Assembly (NCBI GenBank): GCA_011364975.1
Contig: RDOE01000043.1
Span: forward strand, 1 to 30,024
Length of the DNA stretch: 30,024 nt
Direction of reading: 5' to 3'
Source of the DNA: Promethearchaeota archaeon
GTDB taxonomy: Archaea; Asgardarchaeota; Lokiarchaeia; Sigyniarchaeales; SOKP01
Translations under genes and position numbers: made by a program
The notes under the pieces: generated by a model
Told to the model about the DNA's origin: nothing
The model's database searches: none
What the model saw: the letters and a program-made list of their open reading frames with translations, nothing else
Shown here: in pieces, positions 2,167 to 29,431 of the stretch
How positions within the stretch are numbered: the first letter of the stretch is position 1
Layout of the letters: every line of letters begins with the position of its first letter

Positions 2167-3819
2167 TTAAGCAGTAACTTTATATCCTTTGAATAGCCTT
2201 AAGAGATACATAATTTCTTCAGAACCGTTGACTATTCTTTGAAGTTCGAAAGGAAGATTATTAAATTCTACTTGTTTACCTTCTTTAACCCATTTTATTA
2301 TTAGTTCTACGAGTTGCTTATATTTGTTAATTGTATTGCCCTCAAATTCTATTTCGGATAATATATGTAAAGCTTTATCTATTTTTCCATTCAAAACTGA
2401 AGATATAGCTGCTAAAATATAAGATTGTACGATGTGTGATGGGCCTATTTTTTTAAGATTTGCGGCTTTATAATAATATTTATAAACATTCCTTACCATT
2501 TCATTTACAAGAAAATCTTTCGCGATGTCTAGCTGCTGGTAAAATTTTATACTCTCTAAAATAAGAGTGGCAGAGATATAGAATTGTTTATTCTTCAATC
2601 CTTCTTTTGCGATGATATTTAGACCCCGAATTATTTGATTAAAAAGCCCAAATTGATTATATTCAAAACCACCTTCAACTGCGATATCATATGCCGTAAG
2701 ATAACATTCAGTAGAATCATTAACTTCTTTTATTTTCCAATAGTTATCACCTGCTTTAACATAATGTTTGTAAGCCATTTCAAGATTATTCATTTCCTTA
2801 AAAGTAAGAGCTGCATTATAGAAATTAGTAGCTGCTTCATCAAAATCCTCAATTTTTTCAGAATAATTACCCGCTAAGACAAAACAAGAAGCAGATTCTA
2901 TAAGATTATTGTTAATCTCTTGATAACACAATGCGGCACCCCGATAATATCGTCCGATTTTTTGATAATTTTCAGTTGTTTTTTCTAATCGTTCTGCTAA
3001 ATCTATATAAGCTCCAGCTTCTTTTTTTGAATAAGATACGAATTGTTCATCATCATTAATTAGTTGATATAAATTCTTCAAAACTTGAGCTATTTGTGAA
3101 ATAGCCAGATTATCATTTTTCTCTTCGAAATCACGATATAAATCAGTAAAAAATTCAATTCCATCGAGAATTATTTCATTAGATTTATTTATTTCATCTA
3201 ATTCTTTATAGCAAGTATATATTTGTTGGTAAGAAAAAGAAAGAAGATCAAGATATTGGAATTCTTTTGCGATATTTATAACATTGGTATAATATTTTTT
3301 TGCGTATTTGAAATCATTAATTCTAAAGTAAAGTTCCGCTATATTCTGATAATTTTGAGTAAGTTTACGTGATTCATTAAAATCTATTAATATTTTACTC
3401 TCTTGCTTTAGAAAATTAATACTATTTAAGGTATTTTTTCTGCATAATTTATAGTTATGGGCTTTTTCATATAAATCAGCGATTTTAAGATATATCTCGG
3501 CAATTTCGTGCAGCTTTCCTTGAAGTTTATAGGAATTAATTTGTCTTTCCCACAATTTTATTATAAAAGAATACATATTAGCAGGTGGATATTTAATAAT
3601 CTCTTCAAAAACTTCCGTAAAAGAGTATAAAAATTCTCCTGCTTCAAGATATTCTTCCGATTCCACTAAAGTATTAGCAAATGATGTAGCTTCAATGATT
3701 GTTTTTTGAATTAGGACTTCCTTTGCATTATCATCCTTAATATTATTAATCTCAAGTAATTGATCCCTTATTTTATCTAAATACTCTCCATCGTCATCAT
3801 AAATGTCTTCTTCTAATAT
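2167..3819 (-). CDS. Alpha-SNAP/TPR-like helical repeat protein
   Basis: Repeats such as SASCFVLAGNYSEK, AATNFYNAALTFKE, AYKHYVKAGDNYWK, STECYLTAYDIA resemble SNAP helical hairpins. The ORF track starts at GTG 3666, but the frame is open 51 codons further to an ATA at 3819 that follows GGTTGA by 6 nt; start is uncertain. Confidence 0.7.
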   Translation of the reverse strand: MLEEDIYDDDGEYLDKIRDQLLEINNIKDDNAKEVLIQKTIIEATSFANTLVESEEYLEAGEFLYSFTEVFEEIIKYPPANMYSFIIKLWERQINSYKLQGKLHEIAEIYLKIADLYEKAHNYKLCRKNTLNSINFLKQESKILIDFNESRKLTQNYQNIAELYFRINDFKYAKKYYTNVINIAKEFQYLDLLSFSYQQIYTCYKELDEINKSNEIILDGIEFFTDLYRDFEEKNDNLAISQIAQVLKNLYQLINDDEQFVSYSKKEAGAYIDLAERLEKTTENYQKIGRYYRGAALCYQEINNNLIESASCFVLAGNYSEKIEDFDEAATNFYNAALTFKEMNNLEMAYKHYVKAGDNYWKIKEVNDSTECYLTAYDIAVEGGFEYNQFGLFNQIIRGLNIIAKEGLKNKQFYISATLILESIKFYQQLDIAKDFLVNEMVRNVYKYYYKAANLKKIGPSHIVQSYILAAISSVLNGKIDKALHILSEIEFEGNTINKYKQLVELIIKWVKEGKQVEFNNLPFELQRIVNGSEEIMYLLRLFKGYKVTA

Positions 3820-9841: not shown

Positions 9842-10477
9842 ATGGATTTTGAAAAGTTAACGGAATTGATTATTGAATTAGAGGTAGATGATATCGCAGA
9901 TGCAGTGAGAGAGGCTTTAGAGAAGGATGGAAAGGATCCTTTCGATATTTTAGAAGCGCTGACAAAGGGTATGGACGAAGTTGGTAGAAGATATGAAGAA
10001 AAGGAATACTACTTGACTGAATTAGTGTTAGCTGGTGAGACAATGAAGGAGGCATTTGCAGTTTTAAAGCCAGCGTTAGCTGCTGCTGATAAATCACTTG
10101 ATAAAACTAAAATAATCTTAGCAACCGTAAAAGGGGATAATCATGATATTGGTAAAAATATTCTCGGTTCTCTTTTACTCAGTTCTGGTTTTGAGTTATT
10201 TGATTTAGGAATGGATGTGGATGAAAAAACCATTGTGGATAAGGTAAAAGAAACAGGAGCTACCATAATAGCATTAAGTTCACTTTTAACCATGACCGTA
10301 GAGCAAATAAAAGCGGTGCATGAGGCACTTAAGACTGCGGGAATACGAGACAAAGTAAAGCTTATAGTGGGAGGAGCACCATTAAATATGGAACTTGCCC
10401 GAAAGCTTGGAGCTGACGATTTTGCGGATGATGCAGTTGATGGAGTTAAACATATAAAGCAATTAGCGGGGAAATAA
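9842..10477 (+). CDS. Corrinoid (cobalamin-binding) methyltransferase cognate protein, MtaC/MtbC/MttC-like
   Basis: N-terminal cap (LTKGMDEVGRRYE...LVLAGE), B12 motif GDNHDIGKN, LSSLLT, IVGGAP. Confidence 0.92.
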   Translation: MDFEKLTELIIELEVDDIADAVREALEKDGKDPFDILEALTKGMDEVGRRYEEKEYYLTELVLAGETMKEAFAVLKPALAAADKSLDKTKIILATVKGDNHDIGKNILGSLLLSSGFELFDLGMDVDEKTIVDKVKETGATIIALSSLLTMTVEQIKAVHEALKTAGIRDKVKLIVGGAPLNMELARKLGADDFADDAVDGVKHIKQLAGK

Positions 10478-10712: not shown

Positions 10713-10967
10713 TTGTCGGCAGAAAAGAAAGAGAACATTAAATATGACGAAGAGTTAGATACCCGGGGATTATTTTGTCCAGAACCATTATTTGAAGTAA
10801 GAAATTTTGCCGAGACATTGGATATTGGCCAGTGTTTTAAAGTATTAGCTGATGATCCTGCAGCGGAAGAAGATTTAACTAGATGGGCAAAGAAGACTGA
10901 CACTGAGTTAGTAGAATTCGTTAAGGATGGAGACGATTTAATTTTTTATTTTAAAAAAAGAAAATGA
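10713..10967 (+). CDS. tusA: TusA/SirA-family sulfur carrier
   Basis: LDTRGLFCPEP, VLADDPAAEEDL; TTG start after GGAGGT. Confidence 0.9.
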   Translation: MSAEKKENIKYDEELDTRGLFCPEPLFEVRNFAETLDIGQCFKVLADDPAAEEDLTRWAKKTDTELVEFVKDGDDLIFYFKKRK

Positions 10968-10999: not shown

Positions 11000-12181
11000 A
11001 TGAGTGTATACTTAGATAACCAAGCAGCAAAACCTGTTGATAAGCGTGTAATTGATGAGATGATGGATTACTTTAATGATAAGTTTGCAAATCCTGCATC
11101 TCTTCATTGCGATGGTGATATTGCTACAGACATTTTGGAAAAATCACGCCAAAAAGTCGCAGATTTTATTAATGCGCCTAATAGAGAAGATATAATATTT
11201 ACTTCAGGTGCAACTGAATCAAATAATTTGGCGTTAATTGGTGGGGCTCTTAGAAATAAAAAGAAAGGGAATCACATAGTCATATCCGAAATAGAACATA
11301 TTTCAATTTTAAACATTGCTAAATATTTAGAAAGAGAAGGGTTTGTAATAAGTAGAGTTCCAGTTGATCGATTTGGGATTATAAGACTTGATAAGTTAGA
11401 ACGTTTAATAAGAGATGATACGGTAATGATTTCAATTGCGACCGCTAGCAATGAAGTGGGCTCATTACAGCCAATTGAAGAAATTAGCAAAATAGCAACT
11501 GAAAAAGGCGTACTTTTTCATACGGATGCAGTTCCAAGTGAAAGTGTAATTCCTATCGATGTACAAAAAACTCCGATTGATATGATTTCGCTGTCTTCTA
11601 ATGACATTTATGGGCCTAGAGGAGTAGGTGCGTTATATCTAAAGAAGGGAGTTCGAGTAAATCCAATAATTATCGGTGGTGGTCAAGAAAAAGGATTTCG
11701 ATCAGGATCTGAAAATATCCCGGGAATCGTAGGATTTGCTAAAGCAGCAGAAATTATGAAACAGGAAATGCCAAAAGAAGTACAATATCTGAAAGGTTTA
11801 CGAGATAAACTGATAAAAAATATTTTAGAAATTATTCCAAAATCATACTTAAATGGGCATCCTGAAAAAAGATTACCTCATAATGCTCATTTTCGATTTG
11901 ATTATATTGAAGGGGAGTCCTTGATTTTAACCTTGAAAGAAAATAATATTGCTGCTGCAACTGGGTCTGCTTGCAGTTCAAAAACGTTAGAGCCATCTCA
12001 TACGTTAATATCTATGGGTTTACTTCACGAGGAAGCTCATGGTTCTTTATTAGTCTCTTTAGGAAGGACTACGAAGGATTCTGATATCAATAAGTTAATC
12101 GAAGTTCTACCCGAATCAGTTAAAAGGTTACGAAAATTGTCACCCTTAACGCCTCCTGATATGTTAAAAGAATTAAATTAA
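11000..12181 (+). CDS. iscS: IscS/NifS-family cysteine desulfurase homolog with the PLP lysine replaced by Asp
   Basis: YLDNQA, FTSGATESNN, EHISI, GGGQEKGFRSGSEN, GSACSS present; SSNDIYGP where S(A/G)HKxYGP is expected. Confidence 0.9.
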   Translation: MSVYLDNQAAKPVDKRVIDEMMDYFNDKFANPASLHCDGDIATDILEKSRQKVADFINAPNREDIIFTSGATESNNLALIGGALRNKKKGNHIVISEIEHISILNIAKYLEREGFVISRVPVDRFGIIRLDKLERLIRDDTVMISIATASNEVGSLQPIEEISKIATEKGVLFHTDAVPSESVIPIDVQKTPIDMISLSSNDIYGPRGVGALYLKKGVRVNPIIIGGGQEKGFRSGSENIPGIVGFAKAAEIMKQEMPKEVQYLKGLRDKLIKNILEIIPKSYLNGHPEKRLPHNAHFRFDYIEGESLILTLKENNIAAATGSACSSKTLEPSHTLISMGLLHEEAHGSLLVSLGRTTKDSDINKLIEVLPESVKRLRKLSPLTPPDMLKELN

Positions 12182-12195
12182 GGTGAGAAAAAAAT

Positions 12196-12999
12196 ATGAA
12201 ATCAACTGAATATTCAGATAAAGTTTTAGATCATTTCAAGAACCCGCGGAATGTAGGTGAAATAGAGAATGCAGATGGTGTTGGCAAAGTAGGGAATCCT
12301 GTCTGTGGTGATCTAATGTGGATTTACATTAAAGTGGGAAAGAATGATAAAGGAGAGGAAATTATTGATGATATTAAATTTAAGACATTTGGTTGCGGTA
12401 GTGCCATAAGTACATCATCAATGATAACTGAGATGGTTAAAGGGATGAAACTCGATGAAGCATATAAAGTTAGTAGACAGGATGTTGCTGATGAATTGGA
12501 TGGCTTACCACCTATTAAAATGCATTGCAGTAATCTAGCCGCAGATGCATTAAAGGCTGCAATCGATAATTATAGAACGGGAGCAACTCCTGAAGTGGAA
12601 ATTGCTACGTCTTGCCAGCTTGATGTTCGTGTAATTTTAGGTGTTGATGAATTTCTTGGTAAAGGAGTTTATAAAGATATTCCTTCAGACCTAGAAGAAT
12701 TACGCGATAAAAGAATTCTAATAGTGGATTCAGGAGACAAATCCTTAGAACTTGCGCTAAAGCTGACAAAATACACAGGTAGAGTAATTGTGGTGACCTC
12801 TGCTCAATCGATTCCCGGAACAGTTGAAATTAGAAAGCAATTAAAACATTCTGCTGTGAAAGTATTGCAACAATCAGAACTCATCGAAATAAAAGGAGAA
12901 TTGGATGAGCTTGATAAGGTTGTTATACACGACTACGACGAGGATGAGAATTACGATTTGTTTGTTGATGTCGTTATACTATTAGATTACAGAGGGTAA
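12196..12999 (+). CDS. iscU: IscU/NifU-N Fe-S scaffold with a C-terminal degenerate thioredoxin-reductase-like Rossmann domain
   Basis: YSDKVLDHFKNPRNVG, NPVCGD, FGCGSA, LPPIKMHCS in aa 1-128; aa ~143-267 align by eye to the TrxB NADPH domain. Confidence 0.88.
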   Translation: MKSTEYSDKVLDHFKNPRNVGEIENADGVGKVGNPVCGDLMWIYIKVGKNDKGEEIIDDIKFKTFGCGSAISTSSMITEMVKGMKLDEAYKVSRQDVADELDGLPPIKMHCSNLAADALKAAIDNYRTGATPEVEIATSCQLDVRVILGVDEFLGKGVYKDIPSDLEELRDKRILIVDSGDKSLELALKLTKYTGRVIVVTSAQSIPGTVEIRKQLKHSAVKVLQQSELIEIKGELDELDKVVIHDYDEDENYDLFVDVVILLDYRG

Positions 13000-14533: not shown

Positions 14534-16915
14534 ATGAAAAAAGTAGTAATTATCGGAGGAGTTGCTGCTGGGGCATCCGCAGCAGCTCGTTTGAGACGTT
14601 TAAAAGAAGATTATGAAATAATAATGTTAGATAAAGGTTCTTATGTGTCTTTTGCAAATTGTGGCTTACCTTATTATGTGGGTAACGTCATAAAAGATAG
14701 AGAGTCATTGGAATTGATGACACCCCAACGATTTCTCGAACGATTTAACATTGATGTAAGAATCCACTCTGAAGCTATTTCAATTGATCGTGAAAAAAAA
14801 TTGGTTAAGGTAAAAGATATTAATACGGATGAGCATTATAATCTTGAATACGATTACCTTCTACTAGCACCGGGATCAACTCCATTAATACCACCTTTTC
14901 CAGGTTTAGAGGATGTTCCTTCTTATTCAATATGGACTATTCCCGATGCTGTAAAGATTAGGGATTTTGTAGATAATAATAAAGTTAAGAATGCAGTGGT
15001 TGTTGGAGGGGGTTTTATTGGGTTGGAAATGGCAGAAAATTTAGTGGATAAAGGTGTGAGAGTTAAAATTGTGGAAATGCTTGACCAAGTTATGCCTCCT
15101 ATTGATAAAGAAATGGCTCAATTTATTCACCAGGAATTAATCTTAAACGGAGTTTGCTTGGTTTTAGAAGATCCTGTTGATTCTTTCGGGAGAACTAATA
15201 CAGATAAACCATATGTGAAAACAAAAAGTGGTAGAATAATTGAAACCGATTTAATTATTTTAGCTATTGGAATTAAACCTCAAACTAATTTAGCCAAAGA
15301 AGCGGGATTAAAATTGGGAAATCGGGGACATATCATTGTTGATGAGAGTATGCAAACATCAGACCCAAATGTTTATGCTGCTGGAGACGCGGTTTTAGTT
15401 AAACACCTTCAAACAAAAGAATCAGTTGCTATTGCATTAGCAGGTCCTGCAAACAAACAAGGTAGAATTGCTGCAGATAATATAGCAGGAAAGAATTCGA
15501 AATATAACGGAATTTTAGGAGCTTCGGTGGTGAAAGTATTTGATATGACAGTAGCAAGTGTAGGACTAACTGAAAAACAATTAAAGGGAGCTGAAATAAT
15601 ATATGAAAAAATTTATGTTCATCCTAATAATCATGCAAGTTATTATCCTGGGGCAGTTCCTCTTGCATTTAAGTTAATATTTGAAACTCCAACTGGAAAG
15701 GTATTAGGCGCTCAAGTAGTAGGAGGCCCTGGAAGCGATAAGAGGATTGATGTAATTTCTACTATCATAAAGATGGGAGGGACAGTTTTTGATTTAGAGG
15801 AATTAGAATTAACATACGCTCCACCTTATGGATCAGCAAAAGATCCGGTCAACATGGCAGGATTTGTTGCTTCAAATTTTCTAAGAGGTGATATGCCAAT
15901 TCAGCAATGGCATAATATAAAGGATTTTAAAACAAAAGGTGGCGTTCTATTAGATGTAAGATCTGTTGAAGAGTTTCAAGCACGGAATATTCAAGGGTCT
16001 ATTAACATTCCTATCGAAGAATTACGTGATAGAATGAACGAGGTCCCAAAAGGAAAACCAATACTAACATATTGTGAAGTGGGGTATCGAAGTTATTTAG
16101 CTACAAGAGTTCTATTGCAGAATGGTTTCGATGAAGTATATGACTTAACTGGTGGCTTTAAGACTTATGAAATGGCTAATACAACTACCGAAGAAATTGT
16201 TAATGCTTGTGGAGGATCGGAATCAATTATGGAAGAATTAGTTAAAGAAAAAGCTATTGAATCAACTGAATATGTCGAGATAGATTGTAGCGGAATGATA
16301 TGCCCCGGCCCATTGAATGCAATGATTAAATCTTTAGAAACTCTTCCCGAAGGTAAAGAGTTAAAAATCTATGCTACAGATCCAGGATTCAAATCAAGTG
16401 TAGAAGCATATGTTAAGCTCAACGAAGCAATAGAATTGATCCATTTAGGAAAGGAAGAGGGTAAAATAGTAGCGAAACTTAGGAAAGGGAAAATTAAGGT
16501 TGAAGAGATAGCAATGCCCGTTAAACCTAAGAAAAAGACTCGTAAGGAATTACGGGCTTCGAATGCACCTCCAGTATCTGAAATAAGTTCCGATGAATTA
16601 TATGAAAGACTTGATTCTGAAGACGCCCCTTCACTTCTTATCGATGTACGCACTCCTCAAGAGTATAGTAGTCCACATGGACACATTAAAGGTTCAAAAC
16701 TTCTTCCATTAGGAGAATTAATGTACAATATGGATGCTCTTGAAAATTATAAAAATGAAGAGATAGTTGTAATATGTCATAGTGGTTCGCGTTCTATGAT
16801 GGCCGCTCAACTTCTTGCTCAAGCTGGTTATAAAGACCTTAGAAACCTAACTGGAGGTATGATGATGTGGAACCGTAAAGGTTATCCCATAGAGAATGGG
16901 AGAGAGTCCTATTAA
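14534..16915 (+). CDS. CoA-disulfide/persulfide reductase fused to rhodanese, TusA and second rhodanese domains
   Basis: GGVAAG, SFANCGLPY, GGGFIG, YAAGD, YAPPY; rhodanese YCEVGYRS; TusA IDCSGMICPGP; rhodanese ICHSGSRS. Confidence 0.92.
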   Translation: MKKVVIIGGVAAGASAAARLRRLKEDYEIIMLDKGSYVSFANCGLPYYVGNVIKDRESLELMTPQRFLERFNIDVRIHSEAISIDREKKLVKVKDINTDEHYNLEYDYLLLAPGSTPLIPPFPGLEDVPSYSIWTIPDAVKIRDFVDNNKVKNAVVVGGGFIGLEMAENLVDKGVRVKIVEMLDQVMPPIDKEMAQFIHQELILNGVCLVLEDPVDSFGRTNTDKPYVKTKSGRIIETDLIILAIGIKPQTNLAKEAGLKLGNRGHIIVDESMQTSDPNVYAAGDAVLVKHLQTKESVAIALAGPANKQGRIAADNIAGKNSKYNGILGASVVKVFDMTVASVGLTEKQLKGAEIIYEKIYVHPNNHASYYPGAVPLAFKLIFETPTGKVLGAQVVGGPGSDKRIDVISTIIKMGGTVFDLEELELTYAPPYGSAKDPVNMAGFVASNFLRGDMPIQQWHNIKDFKTKGGVLLDVRSVEEFQARNIQGSINIPIEELRDRMNEVPKGKPILTYCEVGYRSYLATRVLLQNGFDEVYDLTGGFKTYEMANTTTEEIVNACGGSESIMEELVKEKAIESTEYVEIDCSGMICPGPLNAMIKSLETLPEGKELKIYATDPGFKSSVEAYVKLNEAIELIHLGKEEGKIVAKLRKGKIKVEEIAMPVKPKKKTRKELRASNAPPVSEISSDELYERLDSEDAPSLLIDVRTPQEYSSPHGHIKGSKLLPLGELMYNMDALENYKNEEIVVICHSGSRSMMAAQLLAQAGYKDLRNLTGGMMMWNRKGYPIENGRESY

Positions 16916-17110: not shown

Positions 17111-17695
17111 ATGAAAGAAACGCCTAAAAAATTATTCGCTGCGTATGTTGGAGAATCTCAAGCTCGAAACCGCTATACATTCTTCTCTTCCATCGCAAAA
17201 AAGGAAGGATTTGTATTAATAACAAATATTTTCCTAGAAACTGCAGATCAAGAGAGAGAACATGGCTTAAATTTCTATAAAATGCTTCAAGAGTTTAAGA
17301 AAGAAGAGAATTTTGATGCATTTAAGGTTAGTGAAGAATATCCAACCACATATAGCACGACTATCGAAAATCTAAAGTCCGCTGTTAATGGAGAAAATAT
17401 GGAATGGCAAACGCTTTATCCAGATTTAGCGGCTACTGCAGAAAAAGAAGGATATCCCCATATTGCTAAAAGAACGAGAGCTATAGCCCGAGCTGAGCAA
17501 CATCATGCCGAACGATATGGTAAATTATTGAAACTAATTGGTGATGATGCGTTCTTTAAGAGAGGTAAAAAGATTGTGTGGGTTTGTATGGAATGTGGTT
17601 ATGAAGTAGAGATGGACCATCTTCCCAAAGACTGGAAATGCCCAAGCTGTGATCATCCAAGAGCTAACTTCAGAAAGAAATGTGAAGATTTCTAA
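17111..17695 (+). CDS. rbr: Rubrerythrin
   Basis: GESQARNRY, EREH, ENME, EQHH diiron motifs; C-terminal CMEC...CPSC. Confidence 0.93.
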   Translation: MKETPKKLFAAYVGESQARNRYTFFSSIAKKEGFVLITNIFLETADQEREHGLNFYKMLQEFKKEENFDAFKVSEEYPTTYSTTIENLKSAVNGENMEWQTLYPDLAATAEKEGYPHIAKRTRAIARAEQHHAERYGKLLKLIGDDAFFKRGKKIVWVCMECGYEVEMDHLPKDWKCPSCDHPRANFRKKCEDF

Positions 17696-17795: not shown

Positions 17796-18188
17796 ATGAA
17801 ACAAAAAGAAATTTATAAATGCAATATATGTGGTAAAGTAATTGAAATTCTTCATCCTGCGGCTCCAGAAACCGTGTGTTGCGGTGAACCTATGAAATTA
17901 ATGGAAGAAAAGACTGCGGACTGGAAAGGAGAGAAACATGTGCCTAAGATAACCATTAAAGGTAACACAATTACTGTAGACGTAGGTATTTCTATGGGAA
18001 CTCCTCACCCTATGACTAAAGAACATTACATTATGTGGATTGAGCTAATCTGCAAAAATAATTGCTATAAAAGGCAATTTTTATCTCCTGGAATGGAACC
18101 TAAAGCAACCTTCGTTGTTTCTGACCCATCCGGATTAGTTGCAAGAGAATATTGTAATCTTCATGGTTTATGGAGAGGGGATAAATAG
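17796..18188 (+). CDS. dfx: Desulfoferrodoxin (2Fe superoxide reductase)
   Basis: CNIC...CCG desulforedoxin domain; EKHVP, HPM, EHYI, CNLHGLW. Confidence 0.95.
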   Translation: MKQKEIYKCNICGKVIEILHPAAPETVCCGEPMKLMEEKTADWKGEKHVPKITIKGNTITVDVGISMGTPHPMTKEHYIMWIELICKNNCYKRQFLSPGMEPKATFVVSDPSGLVAREYCNLHGLWRGDK

Positions 18189-21410: not shown

Positions 21411-22619
21411 CTAAATACTCATTTTATCTATTAACTTATCGATAATGAGCTTAAAGTCTAAATCAGCTGGTTTTGGAACATATTTAATTTTGATTTTTTC
21501 ATCCATAACATCAAATTTAGTATCCTGTAAAATTTGGACAATCTCATCAGGGCATTGACCTGACCATCCATAGGACCCAAATGCAAGCCCAATCTTATTC
21601 ATTGGTTTAAGTCCTTTCTGATAAGATAAATACTCTGCAACTGTTGGATATAACCCATTGTTTAATGTTGGACTTCCTACTAAAATGGCCTTTGCTTTCA
21701 TAGCTTCTGTTATTACATCTGAGTAATCAGCAGTGGTAAGTTTAAACCTTTTAACAGCAATTCCTCGATGTTCGATTTCATTCTGAAGAGCTTTAGCTAT
21801 TTTTTCCGTACTACCCCACATAGTATCATAGACTATAAGAACGCTTTTTTCATCTAGCTCTCCTTTACTCCATTTAGTATACGCTTCCACAATATCTTTA
21901 ATATTACTTCGCCAACAAACACCATGAGAAGGACATATAAGATCAATTGGTAAAGATCCAACTTTAGGTAAGACTTTTGCGATCAAACCTGATAAATGAA
22001 GAAGGATATTCGCATAATACTTTTCTGCTTCTTGCATTATTACACACATATCATTTTCATCATCCCAACGCTTAGATGTAGCAAAATGCTGACCAAAGGC
22101 ATCATTAGAAAAAAGTACATTCTTTCCCTTTTCATCAGTCATGAAAGATACCATAGAATCTGGCCAATGAATCATAGGAATTGGAACAAACGTAAATTTC
22201 TTTCCATTACCTATGTCTAAAGTATCTCCCTCTTTGACTGCTCTAATTCTGTTGAATAGATCATCTGCTAATTCTTCATGATAATGTCCTCTTAATGCAT
22301 CAACTCCTCTTTCGGAAGCTATAATTTCTGTATTGGGAAGATGCTTTACAATTAATGGAAAAGAGCCTGAATGATCAGGTTCAACATGATTGACGATTAA
22401 ATAATCTATATCTTCAAGCTTGCATATTGATTTTATATTCTCTAAGAAATATTCAAAATAAGGACGCTTAACGGTATCTATTAAAACTGTTTTCTCTCCC
22501 TTAACTATATAAGCGTTATAGCTACTTCCTTTATGAGTGCTATACCCATGAAAATTTCGCACCTCGAAATCAACATATCCTACATACCATACATCTTTCA
22601 TTAATTCTAAATGTGTCAT
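21411..22619 (-). CDS. fprA: Flavodiiron protein (FprA, O2/NO reductase)
   Basis: HVEPDH, HWPD, SNDAFG, PSHG; flavodoxin domain YDTMWGSTE, GSPT, FGSYGWSG. Confidence 0.95.
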   Translation of the reverse strand: MTHLELMKDVWYVGYVDFEVRNFHGYSTHKGSSYNAYIVKGEKTVLIDTVKRPYFEYFLENIKSICKLEDIDYLIVNHVEPDHSGSFPLIVKHLPNTEIIASERGVDALRGHYHEELADDLFNRIRAVKEGDTLDIGNGKKFTFVPIPMIHWPDSMVSFMTDEKGKNVLFSNDAFGQHFATSKRWDDENDMCVIMQEAEKYYANILLHLSGLIAKVLPKVGSLPIDLICPSHGVCWRSNIKDIVEAYTKWSKGELDEKSVLIVYDTMWGSTEKIAKALQNEIEHRGIAVKRFKLTTADYSDVITEAMKAKAILVGSPTLNNGLYPTVAEYLSYQKGLKPMNKIGLAFGSYGWSGQCPDEIVQILQDTKFDVMDEKIKIKYVPKPADLDFKLIIDKLIDKMSI

Positions 22620-25996: not shown

Positions 25997-27379
25997 TTAA
26001 TCAATTTTTTTCCTAAAATACTCCTTTGATGCGCCACAGTTGGGGCATTTATAATCATTGGGTAAATCTTCAAAAGCAATACCCATTTTTGCTTCATCAT
26101 ACAGATCTCCACACTTCTCACATCTATATATATATAAATCTAGCAATTTTCGAAGCTCATCTTTATTAACATCCTCTTCCATCTTTTTGTATACATATGA
26201 CACAGCTTTTTTTTCTCCGAACAATATTGCACCCTTTAGCTTGTTATCTTTAAGGATAATCTTTTGATAACAGCAATCTTTTACATCAGCTTTTTTTAAA
26301 ATATCCCAACTTCCCCCTTCTCCTTCCACAGGATTTATTATTCCAATTGACGTTAAATCTAATCCCATGATTTTTAACGTATTTTTGGGGATAGTACCGT
26401 CATATTCCTTAGTTTTAGCACCTATAATAGTGGCTGCGATAATTTTTGATTGCTCCATACAAGCTGGAATTATTCCATATATTTGGTTATTATATTCGAT
26501 ACAGTCTCCTACCGCATAAACATCTGTTTCGCTTGTTTCTAAATATTCATTAATAACTATCCCTTTATTGGTTTTAATACCAGCATTCTTTGCTAAATCA
26601 ATAGTAGGATTGATTCCTGCTTGTATTAATACAATACCTGCATCAAATTGACGACCATCTTTTAATTTGATTCCTGCAACCTTACCATTTCCTAGTATTT
26701 CTTGAGTGGTTGCATTTAAAACGACTTCAATACCTCTTCTTTCAATCTCGTCTTTAAGCATTTTTCCGCATTCTTCATCTAATTGCCTTGGTAATAATCT
26801 TGGAAAAAATTCAACGACAGTTGTTTTCAATTTTGTGTCCTTAATTTGATTTGCTAATTCAAGTCCCAGTAATCCACCTCCAATAACGATTGCTTTTTCA
26901 TTAGGGATTGAAGCAATAAAATTTTTAATTTCCAAAGCATCATCAATGTTACGTAATGTGAAAACTCCTTGTTTGTTATTTTTCATTTCTACTGCTTTAT
27001 TAATAGGTGGAATATTAGGAGTACTCCCCAAGGCTAAAATTAGTTTATCGTAGTTTATAGATTTATTTTTATTTGAAAAATGAACTGTTTTATTTTCGAG
27101 GTTAATATGTTCTGCTTTATGACCCAAAAATAGCTTCAAATCTTTGGTTTTATACCAATCCTCATCAAATACAATTAAATCTTGAATTAATTTTTTACCA
27201 GATATAACTTCGGGCAAATTAATTCGGGTATAATAAGGATATGCTTCTTGAGTATAAATTTCAATTTCAATCTCCTCATTTAGAAATCTAAGGTTTTGTG
27301 CTGTAAAGGTACCCGCAACATTATTACCTATTATCACTACCTTCATAGGTTTATTAGCTTTAACATCCTTTTTTAACAT
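25997..27379 (-). CDS. NAD(P)H:rubredoxin oxidoreductase-like flavoprotein with C-terminal rubredoxin domain
   Basis: IIGNNVAG, LILALGS, GGGLLG, YAVGDC; C-terminal YRCEKCGDLY...FEDLPNDYKCPNCG. Confidence 0.9.
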   Translation of the reverse strand: MLKKDVKANKPMKVVIIGNNVAGTFTAQNLRFLNEEIEIEIYTQEAYPYYTRINLPEVISGKKLIQDLIVFDEDWYKTKDLKLFLGHKAEHINLENKTVHFSNKNKSINYDKLILALGSTPNIPPINKAVEMKNNKQGVFTLRNIDDALEIKNFIASIPNEKAIVIGGGLLGLELANQIKDTKLKTTVVEFFPRLLPRQLDEECGKMLKDEIERRGIEVVLNATTQEILGNGKVAGIKLKDGRQFDAGIVLIQAGINPTIDLAKNAGIKTNKGIVINEYLETSETDVYAVGDCIEYNNQIYGIIPACMEQSKIIAATIIGAKTKEYDGTIPKNTLKIMGLDLTSIGIINPVEGEGGSWDILKKADVKDCCYQKIILKDNKLKGAILFGEKKAVSYVYKKMEEDVNKDELRKLLDLYIYRCEKCGDLYDEAKMGIAFEDLPNDYKCPNCGASKEYFRKKID

Positions 27380-27526: not shown

Positions 27527-29431
27527 ATAGAATTAGAAAGATTGTCCCATCATAAATCCGTTCAAAAAGTATACGAACGGATTAAAAAGGATGGGATGAA
27601 TAATATTTGGGACCGATTTGAAGCTCAAGGATTTTCAGGGGATCCAGATAAGAGATGTCCATTTTGTTTAAAAGGAGCCCGTTGCGATTTATGTTCCAAT
27701 GGCCCGTGTAGATCAGATGCCTCGATCGACAAACGGGGAGTTTGTGGTATCACCGCTGATGGTATGGCTATGCGGATGATGTTATTAAGAAATGTAATGG
27801 GCGCATCTACATATCATTATCATACAGAGGCAACTTTAAAAACGTTAAAAGCAACAATCGAAGGAAAAACCCCTTTTAAAATTAGTGAGCCTGATAAACT
27901 AAAAACATTTGCGAGAAGACTAGGACTAAATGTGTCAGAAGATATCAAAAAAGTAGCCAAAGATCTTCTGGAATTTGTTAGAGAAGACCTTAATCGCCCT
28001 CACACTGAAAAGAGTAAAATTGTCGAAAAATTAGCTCCAGAAGAAAGAAAAAAGGTATGGAATGAACTAGGCATTTTTCCGGGAGGTATCTATGGGGAAA
28101 TGATGTTTTCGACTAGTTCATGTTTAACCAATGTGGATGGATATTATGCTAGCCTTGCGCTTAAAGCTATGCGTTTAGGGATCGCAATGGCATATCAGAG
28201 TCAAATAGTAAATGAATTCATTCAAGATATATTGTTTAACATTCCACGACCTCATAAAATGCGTGTAAATTTGGGTGTATTAGATCCTGATTATGTAAAT
28301 GTCCTACCTAATGGTCATGAACCGTTCTTAGGTTTTGCCATGGTTCAATTAGCACGTAAACCTGAATGGCAAGAAAAAGCTAAAAGTGTAGGCGCAAAAG
28401 GATTAAGAATAATTGCTAATATTGAGACAGGTCAGGAAATGATTCAAAGATGGGAAATGGATGATGTATTTTATGGATTTACCGGAAATTGGATTATGCA
28501 GGAAGCCATCCTAGCAAGTGGCTGTATTGATCTTTTTGCTTGTGATATGAATTGTTCAATGCCTATAGATCCAATCTACGCTAAGAAGTACAAGTTTAAG
28601 TTAATCCCCGTTTCAGATGTCGTTGTTTTTGAAGGAGTTAATGAGCGATTAGATTATGTCCCTGAAAAAGCCGAAGAACAAGCCGCTAAATTACTTCAGA
28701 TGGCAATTGATAATTTTGAAGAACGTCGAAAGAGCATAGAGCCAGTCACAGGATTAGATATGAATGAGGCTGTGGTTGGTTTTTCGAAAGAAAGCATTTT
28801 AGCAGCATTAGGGGGGACTTTAGATCCTCTTTTAAACGCGATTAAAGACGGTACAATAAGAGGGGTTGCCGGGTTAGTATCTTGCACAACTCTTAGAGAT
28901 ACTGGTCAAGACGTACACACCGTCCGTGTAGCAAAAGAATTAATTAAGCGAGACGTATTGGTGTTATCTATGGGATGTGGTAATGGTGGGCTTCAAGTTG
29001 CTGGGTTATGTGTCCCCGAAGCTAAAGACTTAGCAGGACCAGGTCTGAAAAAGATATGTGAATTATTGGGAATACCACCTGTCCTTAGTTTTGGTACTTG
29101 TACCGATACAGGAAGACTTGCGGACCTTGTTGGCGTCATATCTGATGCTCTGGGAGGAGTTGCAATCCCTGATTTGCCTGTAGTTGCTGTTGCCCCTGAA
29201 TACATGGAGCAGAAGGCCACAATAGATGCTATTTTCGCTCTAGCCTTCGGATTGTACACCTATGTTAATCCTGTTCCCACAGTCACAGGAGGACCTAATT
29301 TAATCAAGTTACTTACCGTTGATTGTAAGGATGTAACAGGTGGGATATTACATGTTGAAACTGATCCTTCAGTGGCCGTTGATGCAATGCTTGACCATAT
29401 AGAAGCAAATAGAAAAAAGCTTGGTATTTAA
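27527..29431 (+). CDS. cooS: CooS/HCP-superfamily CO-dehydrogenase-like protein with divergent C-cluster ligands
   Basis: CPFC...CDLCSNGPC...GVCG; NGH, DMNC, VSC, GCG, GTCTD. ORF track starts at TTG 27542; an in-frame ATA at 27527 lies 6 nt after AGGTGA. Confidence 0.9.
   Translation: MELERLSHHKSVQKVYERIKKDGMNNIWDRFEAQGFSGDPDKRCPFCLKGARCDLCSNGPCRSDASIDKRGVCGITADGMAMRMMLLRNVMGASTYHYHTEATLKTLKATIEGKTPFKISEPDKLKTFARRLGLNVSEDIKKVAKDLLEFVREDLNRPHTEKSKIVEKLAPEERKKVWNELGIFPGGIYGEMMFSTSSCLTNVDGYYASLALKAMRLGIAMAYQSQIVNEFIQDILFNIPRPHKMRVNLGVLDPDYVNVLPNGHEPFLGFAMVQLARKPEWQEKAKSVGAKGLRIIANIETGQEMIQRWEMDDVFYGFTGNWIMQEAILASGCIDLFACDMNCSMPIDPIYAKKYKFKLIPVSDVVVFEGVNERLDYVPEKAEEQAAKLLQMAIDNFEERRKSIEPVTGLDMNEAVVGFSKESILAALGGTLDPLLNAIKDGTIRGVAGLVSCTTLRDTGQDVHTVRVAKELIKRDVLVLSMGCGNGGLQVAGLCVPEAKDLAGPGLKKICELLGIPPVLSFGTCTDTGRLADLVGVISDALGGVAIPDLPVVAVAPEYMEQKATIDAIFALAFGLYTYVNPVPTVTGGPNLIKLLTVDCKDVTGGILHVETDPSVAVDAMLDHIEANRKKLGI

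Follow-up and report, generated by a model that had tools for sequence, protein, structure and literature searches.

A degenerate thioredoxin reductase-type domain fused to the IscU scaffold of Asgard archaea and predicted to dock on IscS

In this work, we focused on a stretch of 30,024 nucleotides from a Promethearchaeota archaeon (contig RDOE01000043.1 of assembly GCA_011364975.1, positions 1 to 30,024; hereafter the window, G+C about 31 %). An open reading frame (ORF) of 267 amino acids (aa), at 12196..12999 on the plus strand, encodes an IscU/MisU scaffold for the assembly of iron-sulfur (Fe-S) clusters followed by a degenerate pyridine-nucleotide domain of the thioredoxin reductase (TrxR) type, hereafter the C-domain, with a disordered linker between them. 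Proteins of this make-up are referred to as the C267 type, a label of our own. The gene starts 15 bases past that of an IscS-like protein, in which the lysine that carries pyridoxal phosphate (PLP) is replaced. The two genes and the parts of the fusion are as follows, pLDDT being the predicted local distance difference test score of the structural model:

11000..12181, plus strand: IscS/MisS-like protein with Asp202 (codon 11603-11605) in place of the PLP lysine, in an SSND motif; the cysteine loop GSACSS is kept
12196..12591, plus strand: IscU domain, residues 1-132 (PF01592, Foldseek), with cluster ligands C37, D39, C67, H110 and C111
12592..12627, plus strand: disordered linker, residues 133-144 (pLDDT <50), which holds 'EIATSC' and Cys140 (12613-12615)
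12628..12996, plus strand: C-domain, residues 145-267, a Rossmann-type relic of an NADPH domain, predicted to be non-catalytic
12727..12744, plus strand: destroyed dinucleotide motif D178-S-G-D-K-S183 (GxGxxA in TrxR), counted below in 78 fusions
12928..12969, plus strand: acidic hairpin H245-D-x-D-E-D-E-N-Y-E-L-F-V-D258, with invariant residues

The N-terminal domain was recognized by PF01592 (NifU_N/IscU), which matched residues 5-128 (E 9.6e-48, 162 bits for a cut-off of 22), and by TIGR03419 (NifU_clost), which matched the N-terminal part with 197 bits (cut-off 187.9). Its top match in Foldseek was the archaeal IscU 7c8m_A (67 % identity, E 1.4e-17, template-modelling (TM) score on the target 0.87). 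Residue conservation was counted over 78 full-length fusions, i.e. 77 related loci and the window, and the five cluster ligands were all present in the window protein as well as in 78/78 fusions. By homology, this domain is considered an intact, standard IscU acting in Fe-S cluster assembly.

Residues 143-267 (12622-12999) had been read in a first-pass annotation of the window as a degenerate NADPH-binding domain of TrxR carried by IscU, on the strength of the peptides GVDEFLGKGVYKDIPSDLEELRDKRILIVDSGDKSLELALKLTKYTGRVIVV, ELIEIKGE and LFVDVVIL, all of which are present in the translation. Database searches lead to the same identification. The TIGR01292 profile (TRX_reduct) was returned for the C-terminal part at E 9.6e-11, residues 130-260 aligning to profile positions 100-230 of 300; the score stayed under the cut-off for a full-length protein (41 bits vs 343.45), and PF00070 was sub-threshold on the C-domain (19.5-21.4 bits vs 22). 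Using phmmer, thioredoxin reductase 4up3 was the top PDB match of the C-domain (E 1.9e-8), and nearly all of the 32 matches at E≤1 were TrxR or TrxR-type ferredoxin-NADP+ reductases (FNRs). A profile of the C-domain family retrieved 47 PDB matches at E≤0.01, including 2zbw at E 1.3e-14.

An AlphaFold2 monomer model built on 35 fusion sequences (mean pLDDT 81.8) comprised two confident domains. Foldseek, a check proposed in the first-pass annotation, matched the modelled C-domain to the NADPH domains of TrxR structures (e.g. 3f8d, 2q7v, 2zbw and 4a5l) at E ~2e-10, with a root-mean-square deviation of 1.7-2.7 Å over ~120 residues; a search of the ESM Atlas with the C-domain returned generic Pyr_redox clusters only. 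The likeness of the C-domain to the pyridine-nucleotide domain of TrxR is far beyond chance. Stable packing of the IscU domain and the C-domain against each other was also considered, and dropped in view of the predicted TM score (pTM) of the monomer, 0.49, and of a linker pLDDT below 50.

The C-domain no longer carries the motifs of a pyridine-nucleotide enzyme. In the place of GxGxxA the fusions read D-[ST]-G-D-x-S, the first Gly having become Asp178 (76/78) and the closing Ala Ser183 (76/78), with Gly180 kept in 77/78; the HRR motif, which contacts the 2'-phosphate in TrxR, is replaced by T201-S-A, Thr201 being found in 78/78. Positions 160-165, equivalent to those of CxxC, read K-D-I-P-S-D, and a Cys occurs there in 0/78 fusions. 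In Foldseek, the alignment to TrxR structures is limited to the part from the NADPH domain, and the FAD domain is without counterpart in the ORF, which stops at residue 267. Because the FAD domain and CxxC are absent and both GxGxxA and HRR are destroyed, the remnant is, as judged from its sequence, not an enzyme: it should be unable to bind flavin or NAD(P)H, and it has no redox Cys. The loss of GxGxxA, the missing FAD domain and the non-catalytic character had all been stated in the first-pass annotation and hold; what it said of CxxC and HRR is taken up below with the origin of the domain.

Other positions are strictly kept, many of them on the surface. In the acidic hairpin, H245, D246, E249, D250, E251, Y253, L255 and D258 are each present in 78/78 fusions, and the linker Cys140 in 76/78. 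The HD..EDE hairpin is confined to IscU-fused forms and to one further protein, P0181, and is absent from stand-alone relatives. At one locus (L078, 5599-6393), this otherwise invariant hairpin bears an HDHDHD expansion (KIHDHDHDHDEDEEYE) that resembles a metal-binding repeat. Selection was assessed on 39 ungapped coding sequences, i.e. 741 pairs, of which the 96 with unsaturated dS were used; median dN/dS was 0.114 for the C-domain vs 0.045 for the IscU domain. The C-domain is held by purifying selection.

The distribution of the fusion was surveyed in three ways. A word-indexed protein search with the C-domain gave 335 proteins at E≤1e-3, the best 120 of which were almost all 267 aa long with PF01592. 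When 1.84 billion cluster representatives were searched exhaustively, 78 matched at E≤1e-3, with fusions or fragments of fusions ranked first and full-length TrxR-like proteins after them. Finally, a scan of one genome per species gave 183 confirmed loci, 80 of which were kept: IscU and the C-domain lie in a single ORF in 79 of these 80 loci, and the remaining locus is cut by a contig end. The fusion is therefore genuine and conserved, which answers the search for homologous fusions that the first-pass annotation had proposed. Longer architectures with the C-domain (469-2000 aa) were not found at E≤1e-8, an absence that the search tool itself rates as weak evidence. In a few short database proteins (P0162, P0124, P0134, P0148 and P0158), the C-domain or one half of it is linked to sequence other than IscU, in one case to the IscS C-terminus; artefacts of assembly or gene calling may explain them, or they may be rare other architectures.

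Taxon labels were counted by hand from the titles of the deposited records of the 80 loci. Promethearchaeota or Promethearchaeia accounted for 53 loci, Hermodarchaeota for 6, Hodarchaeota for 5, Thorarchaeota for 3, Odinarchaeota and Helarchaeota for 1 each, and 'uncultured archaeon' for 8. The closest public locus, titled Promethearchaeota archaeon, shares 91 % identity with the window over the C-domain and 95 % over the IscU part. Three loci bear bacterial names (L023, Nanopelagicaceae; L077, Deltaproteobacteria; L079, Aerophobetes). L023 is probably mis-binned, its G+C (0.33) and its synteny both being Loki-like; L077 (G+C 0.51) and L079 (G+C 0.46) form a divergent branch without Cys140 at the aligned position.

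The C-domain is related to that of a longer fusion. Among full-length proteins, the family retrieved most strongly by the C-domain profile consists of 448-aa proteins (P0199-P0213, E 1e-29 to 1e-26) in which PF01592 (NifU_N) is combined with a complete Pyr_redox_2 region. One of them bears the name 'Fe-S cluster assembly scaffold protein NifU [Candidatus Jordarchaeaceae archaeon]', while Freyarchaeum and Jordarchaeum are the labels of shorter gene calls in the family; P0154, the nearest of all TrxR-like relatives by the same profile, is a fragment of this family. These proteins keep intact FAD motifs (GGGPAG and GD) and an intact GxGxxA (GNGEQA), have YKE in place of HRR, and are devoid of CxxC. 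The AlphaFold2 model of one of them, P0200, is a complete TrxR fold (pLDDT 85.9, TM score 0.87-0.90 to TrxR in the FR conformation). From these motifs, the 448-aa fusions could be real flavoenzymes, and are candidates for a redox partner built into a minimal Fe-S system.

By BLASTP, the window protein and P0200 share 71 % identity over the IscU part and 35 % over the C-domain (E 4e-17), and the unmatched residues of P0200, 123-232 and 375-448, make up both halves of its FAD domain. The linker 'EIATSC' aligns to 'ILATGT' of P0200, the strand with the ATG motif, and is on this alignment a relic of that strand of the lost FAD domain. A Cys in the connecting segment was found in 14/15 motif-matched sequences of the 448-aa family (11 full-length fusions and 4 shorter gene calls) and was absent from stand-alone relatives.

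A maximum-likelihood tree of the C-domain (108 rows, 127 columns, unrooted; supports given as ultrafast bootstrap/Shimodaira-Hasegawa-like approximate likelihood ratio test) recovered the 267-aa clade at 100/99 and the 448-aa clade (F448) at 100/99, and grouped both with P0181 at 83/97. This group sits among archaeal TrxR-like proteins without CxxC, and the CxxC-bearing TrxRs are separate. The first-pass annotation had assumed that a CxxC (CATC) was lost from a TrxB donor, which does not agree with these data: the nearest full-length TrxR-like proteins ranked by the C-domain profile are all without CxxC, and with the placement in the tree this makes an origin from a CxxC-bearing TrxB improbable. 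The C-domain probably descends from a CxxC-less TrxR-like branch, so that a loss of CxxC need never have occurred. The loss of HRR stands as an observation, with the amendment that this motif is absent already in the 448-aa relatives.

The NADPH domain of TrxR-like proteins is inserted within the FAD domain, and the window protein retains relics of both strands that cross from one to the other. For these two reasons, the simplest history runs from a reductase, through fusion to IscU, to loss of the FAD domain. A CxxC-less archaeal TrxR-like reductase of the FNR type would have been fused to IscU, the product surviving as the 448-aa proteins labelled Jordarchaeaceae; in the lineage leading to the window, the FAD domain would then have been deleted on either side of the NADPH-type insertion; and the nucleotide site would have decayed, GxGxxA giving D-[ST]-G-D-x-S and HRR giving T-S-A. 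We infer the direction, from full fusion to relic, from the domain topology and the relic of the ATG strand.

The neighbouring IscS-like protein offers a candidate binding partner. Active desulfurases have S-[GA]-H-K where the window IscS has SSND, and an acidic residue at the position of the PLP lysine (SSND or SSNE) was found in 77/77 IscS genes that adjoin a fused IscU, the Cys loop being kept in all. The top PDB match of the window IscS is the IscS of Archaeoglobus fulgidus (4eb5_A, E 1.4e-133), with an identical SSNDIYGP motif. A review (PMC8918507) reports that A. fulgidus IscS is without cysteine desulfurase activity and that it has been proposed as a mere co-scaffold contributing a Cys ligand, sulfide being a possible source of sulfur. 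By analogy, the window IscS is presumably such a co-scaffold and not a cysteine desulfurase.

A complex of IscS, IscU (residues 1-132) and the C-domain (residues 141-267) was modelled with ESMFold2, each chain having its own alignment, and the C-domain was scored. It obtained 0.66, 0.64 and 0.69 (median 0.66), the best of three controls reaching 0.00; contact agreement between runs was at least 88 % and partner pLDDT at least 85. All confident contacts of the C-domain are made with IscS. They involve residues 171-173, 194-196, 217, 220, 222, 236, 240, 253 and 255-258 of the C-domain, i.e. including the second strand of the hairpin (Y253, L255-D258), and residues 121, 123-125, 132, 135-136, 283, 337-340, 342-343, 385 and 387 of IscS. 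The PDB sequence and Foldseek searches made here showed no solved structure in which IscS is bound to a TrxR-type domain, so the prediction is unlikely to be a recall of a known structure.

Two independent checks fit this docking model. The 16 contact positions of the C-domain have a conservation of 0.91 vs 0.77 elsewhere, a value reached by 31 of 10000 random sets of 16 positions. At locus L073, a Lys-type IscS paralogue that is paired with a plain 128-aa IscU carries E, D, S, E and T at the positions of K132, R135, L136, L342 and H343. The first-pass annotation had proposed a docking module with IscS among its possible partners; this part of its proposal is now backed by a controlled complex prediction, and keeps the rank of a prediction.

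We thus favour, with a probability of roughly 0.55, the reading that the ORF is an IscU/MisU scaffold bearing the leftover of a TrxR-like flavoprotein, kept as a non-catalytic module for docking on IscS. The C-domain would hang from the end of the C-terminal helix of IscU by a flexible linker of ~12 residues and dock on IscS through K172, R173, T194-R196, K217, K222, E240, Y253 and L255-D258. It would thereby be a second anchor of the scaffold on IscS, which would stabilise or orient the IscS-IscU assembly complex.

Several points weigh against this interpretation. The contact with IscS is model confidence and not a measurement; in the calibration of the tool, the mark obtained here was reached by 58/80 solved complexes and 2/110 mismatched pairs, counts that apply only roughly to the present case, whose three chains and custom alignments differ from those of the calibration. 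The complex was modelled with a single IscS protomer and with 8 linker residues omitted, which would have to span the modelled distance, and the AlphaFold2 monomer fixes no arrangement of the two domains (pTM 0.49). The IscS contact residues are, as a set, not extra conserved (0.80 vs 0.82 overall). The hairpin tip (H245-N252) and Cys140 fall outside the confident interface, which leaves the two most striking conserved features unexplained; their possible roles are contact with a second IscS protomer, iron binding, sulfur carriage or binding of a further partner. A. fulgidus has an Asp-type IscS together with a plain IscU (4eb5_C), so this type of IscS does not require an extra domain. As for the origin, the unrooted tree is built on 127 columns and groups the C267 and F448 forms with a bootstrap of only 83 %.

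Genes around the IscS and fusion genes are conserved as well. The features concerned in the window are:

9842..10477, plus strand: B12-binding-domain protein (PF02310, PF02607), found upstream of TusA in many loci
10713..10967, plus strand: TusA-type sulfur carrier with a CPxP motif (PF01206, E 3.2e-18), kept upstream of the IscS gene
14534..16915, plus strand: 793-aa flavoprotein resembling CoA-disulfide reductase (CoADR), fused to rhodanese-TusA-rhodanese (Pfam), found downstream in most loci

The gene order TusA, IscS, fusion is preserved in the loci that reach far enough upstream. In 29/80 loci, a 120-aa DsrE-like ORF lies between TusA and IscS (e.g. L073, 3967-4329); it is absent from the window. 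Rubrerythrin and desulfoferrodoxin are linked to the fusion cluster in 48/81 and 47/81 sources, respectively. Taken together, the TusA, DsrE-like, CoADR-rhodanese, rubrerythrin and desulfoferrodoxin genes suggest a Fe-S system fed by a sulfur relay and possibly linked to stress. Its sulfur would come from sulfide, or from the TusA, DsrE-like and rhodanese-CoADR relay encoded nearby. In the translation of the 793-aa protein, the active-site Cys motifs are all present.

Some further observations were made in the vicinity. The B12-binding-domain protein has no obvious tie to Fe-S assembly. The window also holds a cluster of defence against oxygen and reactive oxygen species (17111-17695, 17796-18188, 21411-22619 on the minus strand, 25997-27379 on the minus strand, and 27542-29431), whose genes encode rubrerythrin, desulfoferrodoxin, a flavodiiron-type protein, a rubredoxin-fused NAD(P)H oxidoreductase and a hybrid-cluster protein. 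A 499-aa ORF at 2167-3666 (minus strand) matches the Pfam family SNAP (soluble NSF attachment protein) at E 5e-10; it belongs with the eukaryote-like tetratricopeptide repeat proteins that have been reported from Asgard genomes. At locus L073 (1-3429), a canonical pair, i.e. the Lys-type IscS and the plain 128-aa IscU, lies with two PP-loop ATPase-like ORFs just upstream of the fused system. The genome concerned thus has two Fe-S systems, the fused one being the paralogous second.

Other roles of the C-domain were weighed against docking on IscS. The hairpin H245-D-x-D-E-D-E, perhaps with Cys140, may weakly bind Fe2+ and pass iron to the IscU site, possibly alongside docking on IscS. Such a module would resemble in function the acidic ridge of frataxin/CyaY, through which these proteins bind both iron and IscS. 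It would account for the invariance of H245, D246, E249, D250 and E251 (78/78) and the near-invariance of C140 (76/78), for a hairpin tip left unused in the confident IscS interface, for the HDHDHD expansion of the hairpin loop at L078, for the occurrence of the hairpin in both IscU-fused lineages and not in stand-alone relatives, and for the net charge of the C-domain (-8). Acidic surface loops are however commonplace, the neighbouring proteins are acidic too (per 100 residues, -8.3 for TusA and -6.6 for the B12-binding protein), and the hairpin could touch a second IscS protomer, missing from the model; we hold this role to be unlikely. The same degree of doubt applies to docking on a partner other than IscS, be it thioredoxin, a partner also named in the first-pass annotation, TusA, the DsrE-like protein, the CoADR-rhodanese protein, or a ferredoxin or flavodoxin, the redox partner that TrxR-type FNRs had ancestrally. 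The genes kept beside the fusion include that of TusA and, in most loci, that of the CoADR-rhodanese-TusA-rhodanese protein, the DsrE-like ORF stands between TusA and IscS in 29/80 loci, and the IscS model leaves the hairpin and Cys140 without an explanation. Moreover, the electron donors of MIS systems are unknown according to a second review (PMC13066941). On the other side, the IscS interface already accounts for the conserved surface residues, and no thioredoxin gene was found among the scanned window ORFs.

A structural role has less in its favour. The FAD domain is the dimer interface of TrxR-like proteins, and after its loss the remnant could pair two IscU for the reductive coupling of two [2Fe-2S] into [4Fe-4S]. 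The former crossing strands have stayed hydrophobic and conserved (LFVDVVIL, L255 and D258 each being present in 78/78), and IscU dimers have been implicated in [4Fe-4S] formation (PMC13066941); yet the complex model has strand L255-D258 buried in the contact with IscS, which makes such pairing improbable. TrxR NADPH domains are also not known to self-associate. A residual sensor, i.e. a Rossmann remnant still able to bind a small molecule akin to a nucleotide and acting as a regulator of the scaffold, would suit a fold kept with high model confidence and the middle Gly180 (77/78). It appears very improbable when HRR is gone in 78/78, Asp stands for the first Gly of GxGxxA in 76/78 and Ser for the Ala in 76/78, an acidic side chain at this turn being expected to repel pyrophosphate. 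Lastly, a relic that arose by domain loss and is deprived of every catalytic motif might be functionless and merely tolerated; this is close to refuted by a dN/dS of 0.114 over the 96 unsaturated pairs, by the many positions invariant in 78/78 fusions and by the retention of the domain in 79/80 loci across several Asgard labels.

Docking on IscS, as favoured here, can be set against known systems. The nearest are the 448-aa fusions of Jord- and Freyarchaeia, which share with the window protein the same IscU (71 % identity), the closest NADPH-type domain (35 %), the HD..EDE hairpin and the lack of CxxC and HRR, and differ by keeping a whole FAD domain and an intact GNGEQA, both absent from the window protein. 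With the IscS-IscU of A. fulgidus (4eb5, 4eb7; IscS alone, 4hvk), the window pair has in common the Asp-for-Lys IscS, an IscU of 66 % identity (Foldseek) and the organization as a two-gene minimal system, whereas A. fulgidus IscU is a plain single domain of ~138 aa with no C-terminal domain. TrxB and TrxR-type FNRs (2zbw, 3lzw, 3f8d and 4up3) share the fold and the sequence signature of the pyridine-nucleotide domain, with both crossing strands; in contrast to them, the window domain is without FAD domain, CxxC, GxGxxA and HRR, and is attached to IscU instead of standing alone.

NifU is made of three domains, i.e. an IscU-like, a ferredoxin-like [2Fe-2S] and a Nfu domain. The window protein likewise adds to a scaffold of the IscU type an accessory domain that descends from a redox protein, but this accessory domain is an unrelated Rossmann relic with no cofactor site. 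TIGR02000 (NifU_proper) matched with 155 bits for a cut-off of 273.3 and over profile positions 3-123 of 290 only, in line with the remark of the first-pass annotation that this is not the usual NifU architecture. Frataxin/CyaY, IscX and ferredoxin dock on IscS/NFS1 beside IscU, and the C-domain is predicted to be, like them, an acidic module on IscS next to the scaffold; it differs in its unrelated fold and in being covalently tethered to IscU. The predicted docking site on IscS comprises residues 121-136, 283, 337-343 and 385-387.

An adjacent pair of IscS-like and IscU-like genes, which characterizes MIS-type systems, is present in the window and in the loci that reach far enough upstream, and no chaperone, A-type carrier or ferredoxin was found among the Pfam matches of the window ORFs. 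From this gene content, we tentatively assign the pair to the MIS-type minimal systems (MisS/MisU, named as in PMC13066941).

A full-text literature search, covering main texts and leaving supplements and the MIS-defining Garcia et al. 2022 outside its scope, found no published description of an IscU fused to a TrxR-like domain, and the fusion is not described in the parts of PMC13066941 and PMC8918507 on which we draw. The databases name the fusion proteins simply NifU or IscU scaffold, and the 448-aa forms are known from databases only, no paper on them having been found. The C267 type would thus combine a known scaffold with an accessory domain that is new, non-catalytic and derived from an enzyme.

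A longer story can be told from these elements. A flavin reductase built into the scaffold, as in the 448-aa proteins of Jord- and Freyarchaeia, would have been an electron source or sink for sulfide-based assembly, and its FAD domain would have been lost in Loki-type lineages. The remnant would then have become a tethered, frataxin-like accessory that holds the scaffold fast on the desulfurase-dead IscS and takes part, through HDxDEDE and Cys140, in the hand-over of iron or sulfur, the redox task passing to the CoADR-rhodanese-TusA relay. We regard this whole sequence of events as unlikely; if it were true, it would bring to light the redox partner that is missing from the archaeal minimal Fe-S system.

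Archaeal Fe-S assembly is thought to rely on minimal two-protein systems, whose electron partners and accessory factors are unknown (PMC13066941). The present results would give two handles on such systems, i.e. a candidate built-in reductase in the 448-aa form, and, in the C267 form, an accessory domain that is tethered to the scaffold and is predicted to hold on to a desulfurase-dead IscS. The C-domain would also illustrate cleanly how an enzyme domain can lose its cofactor sites and be put to new use in binding.

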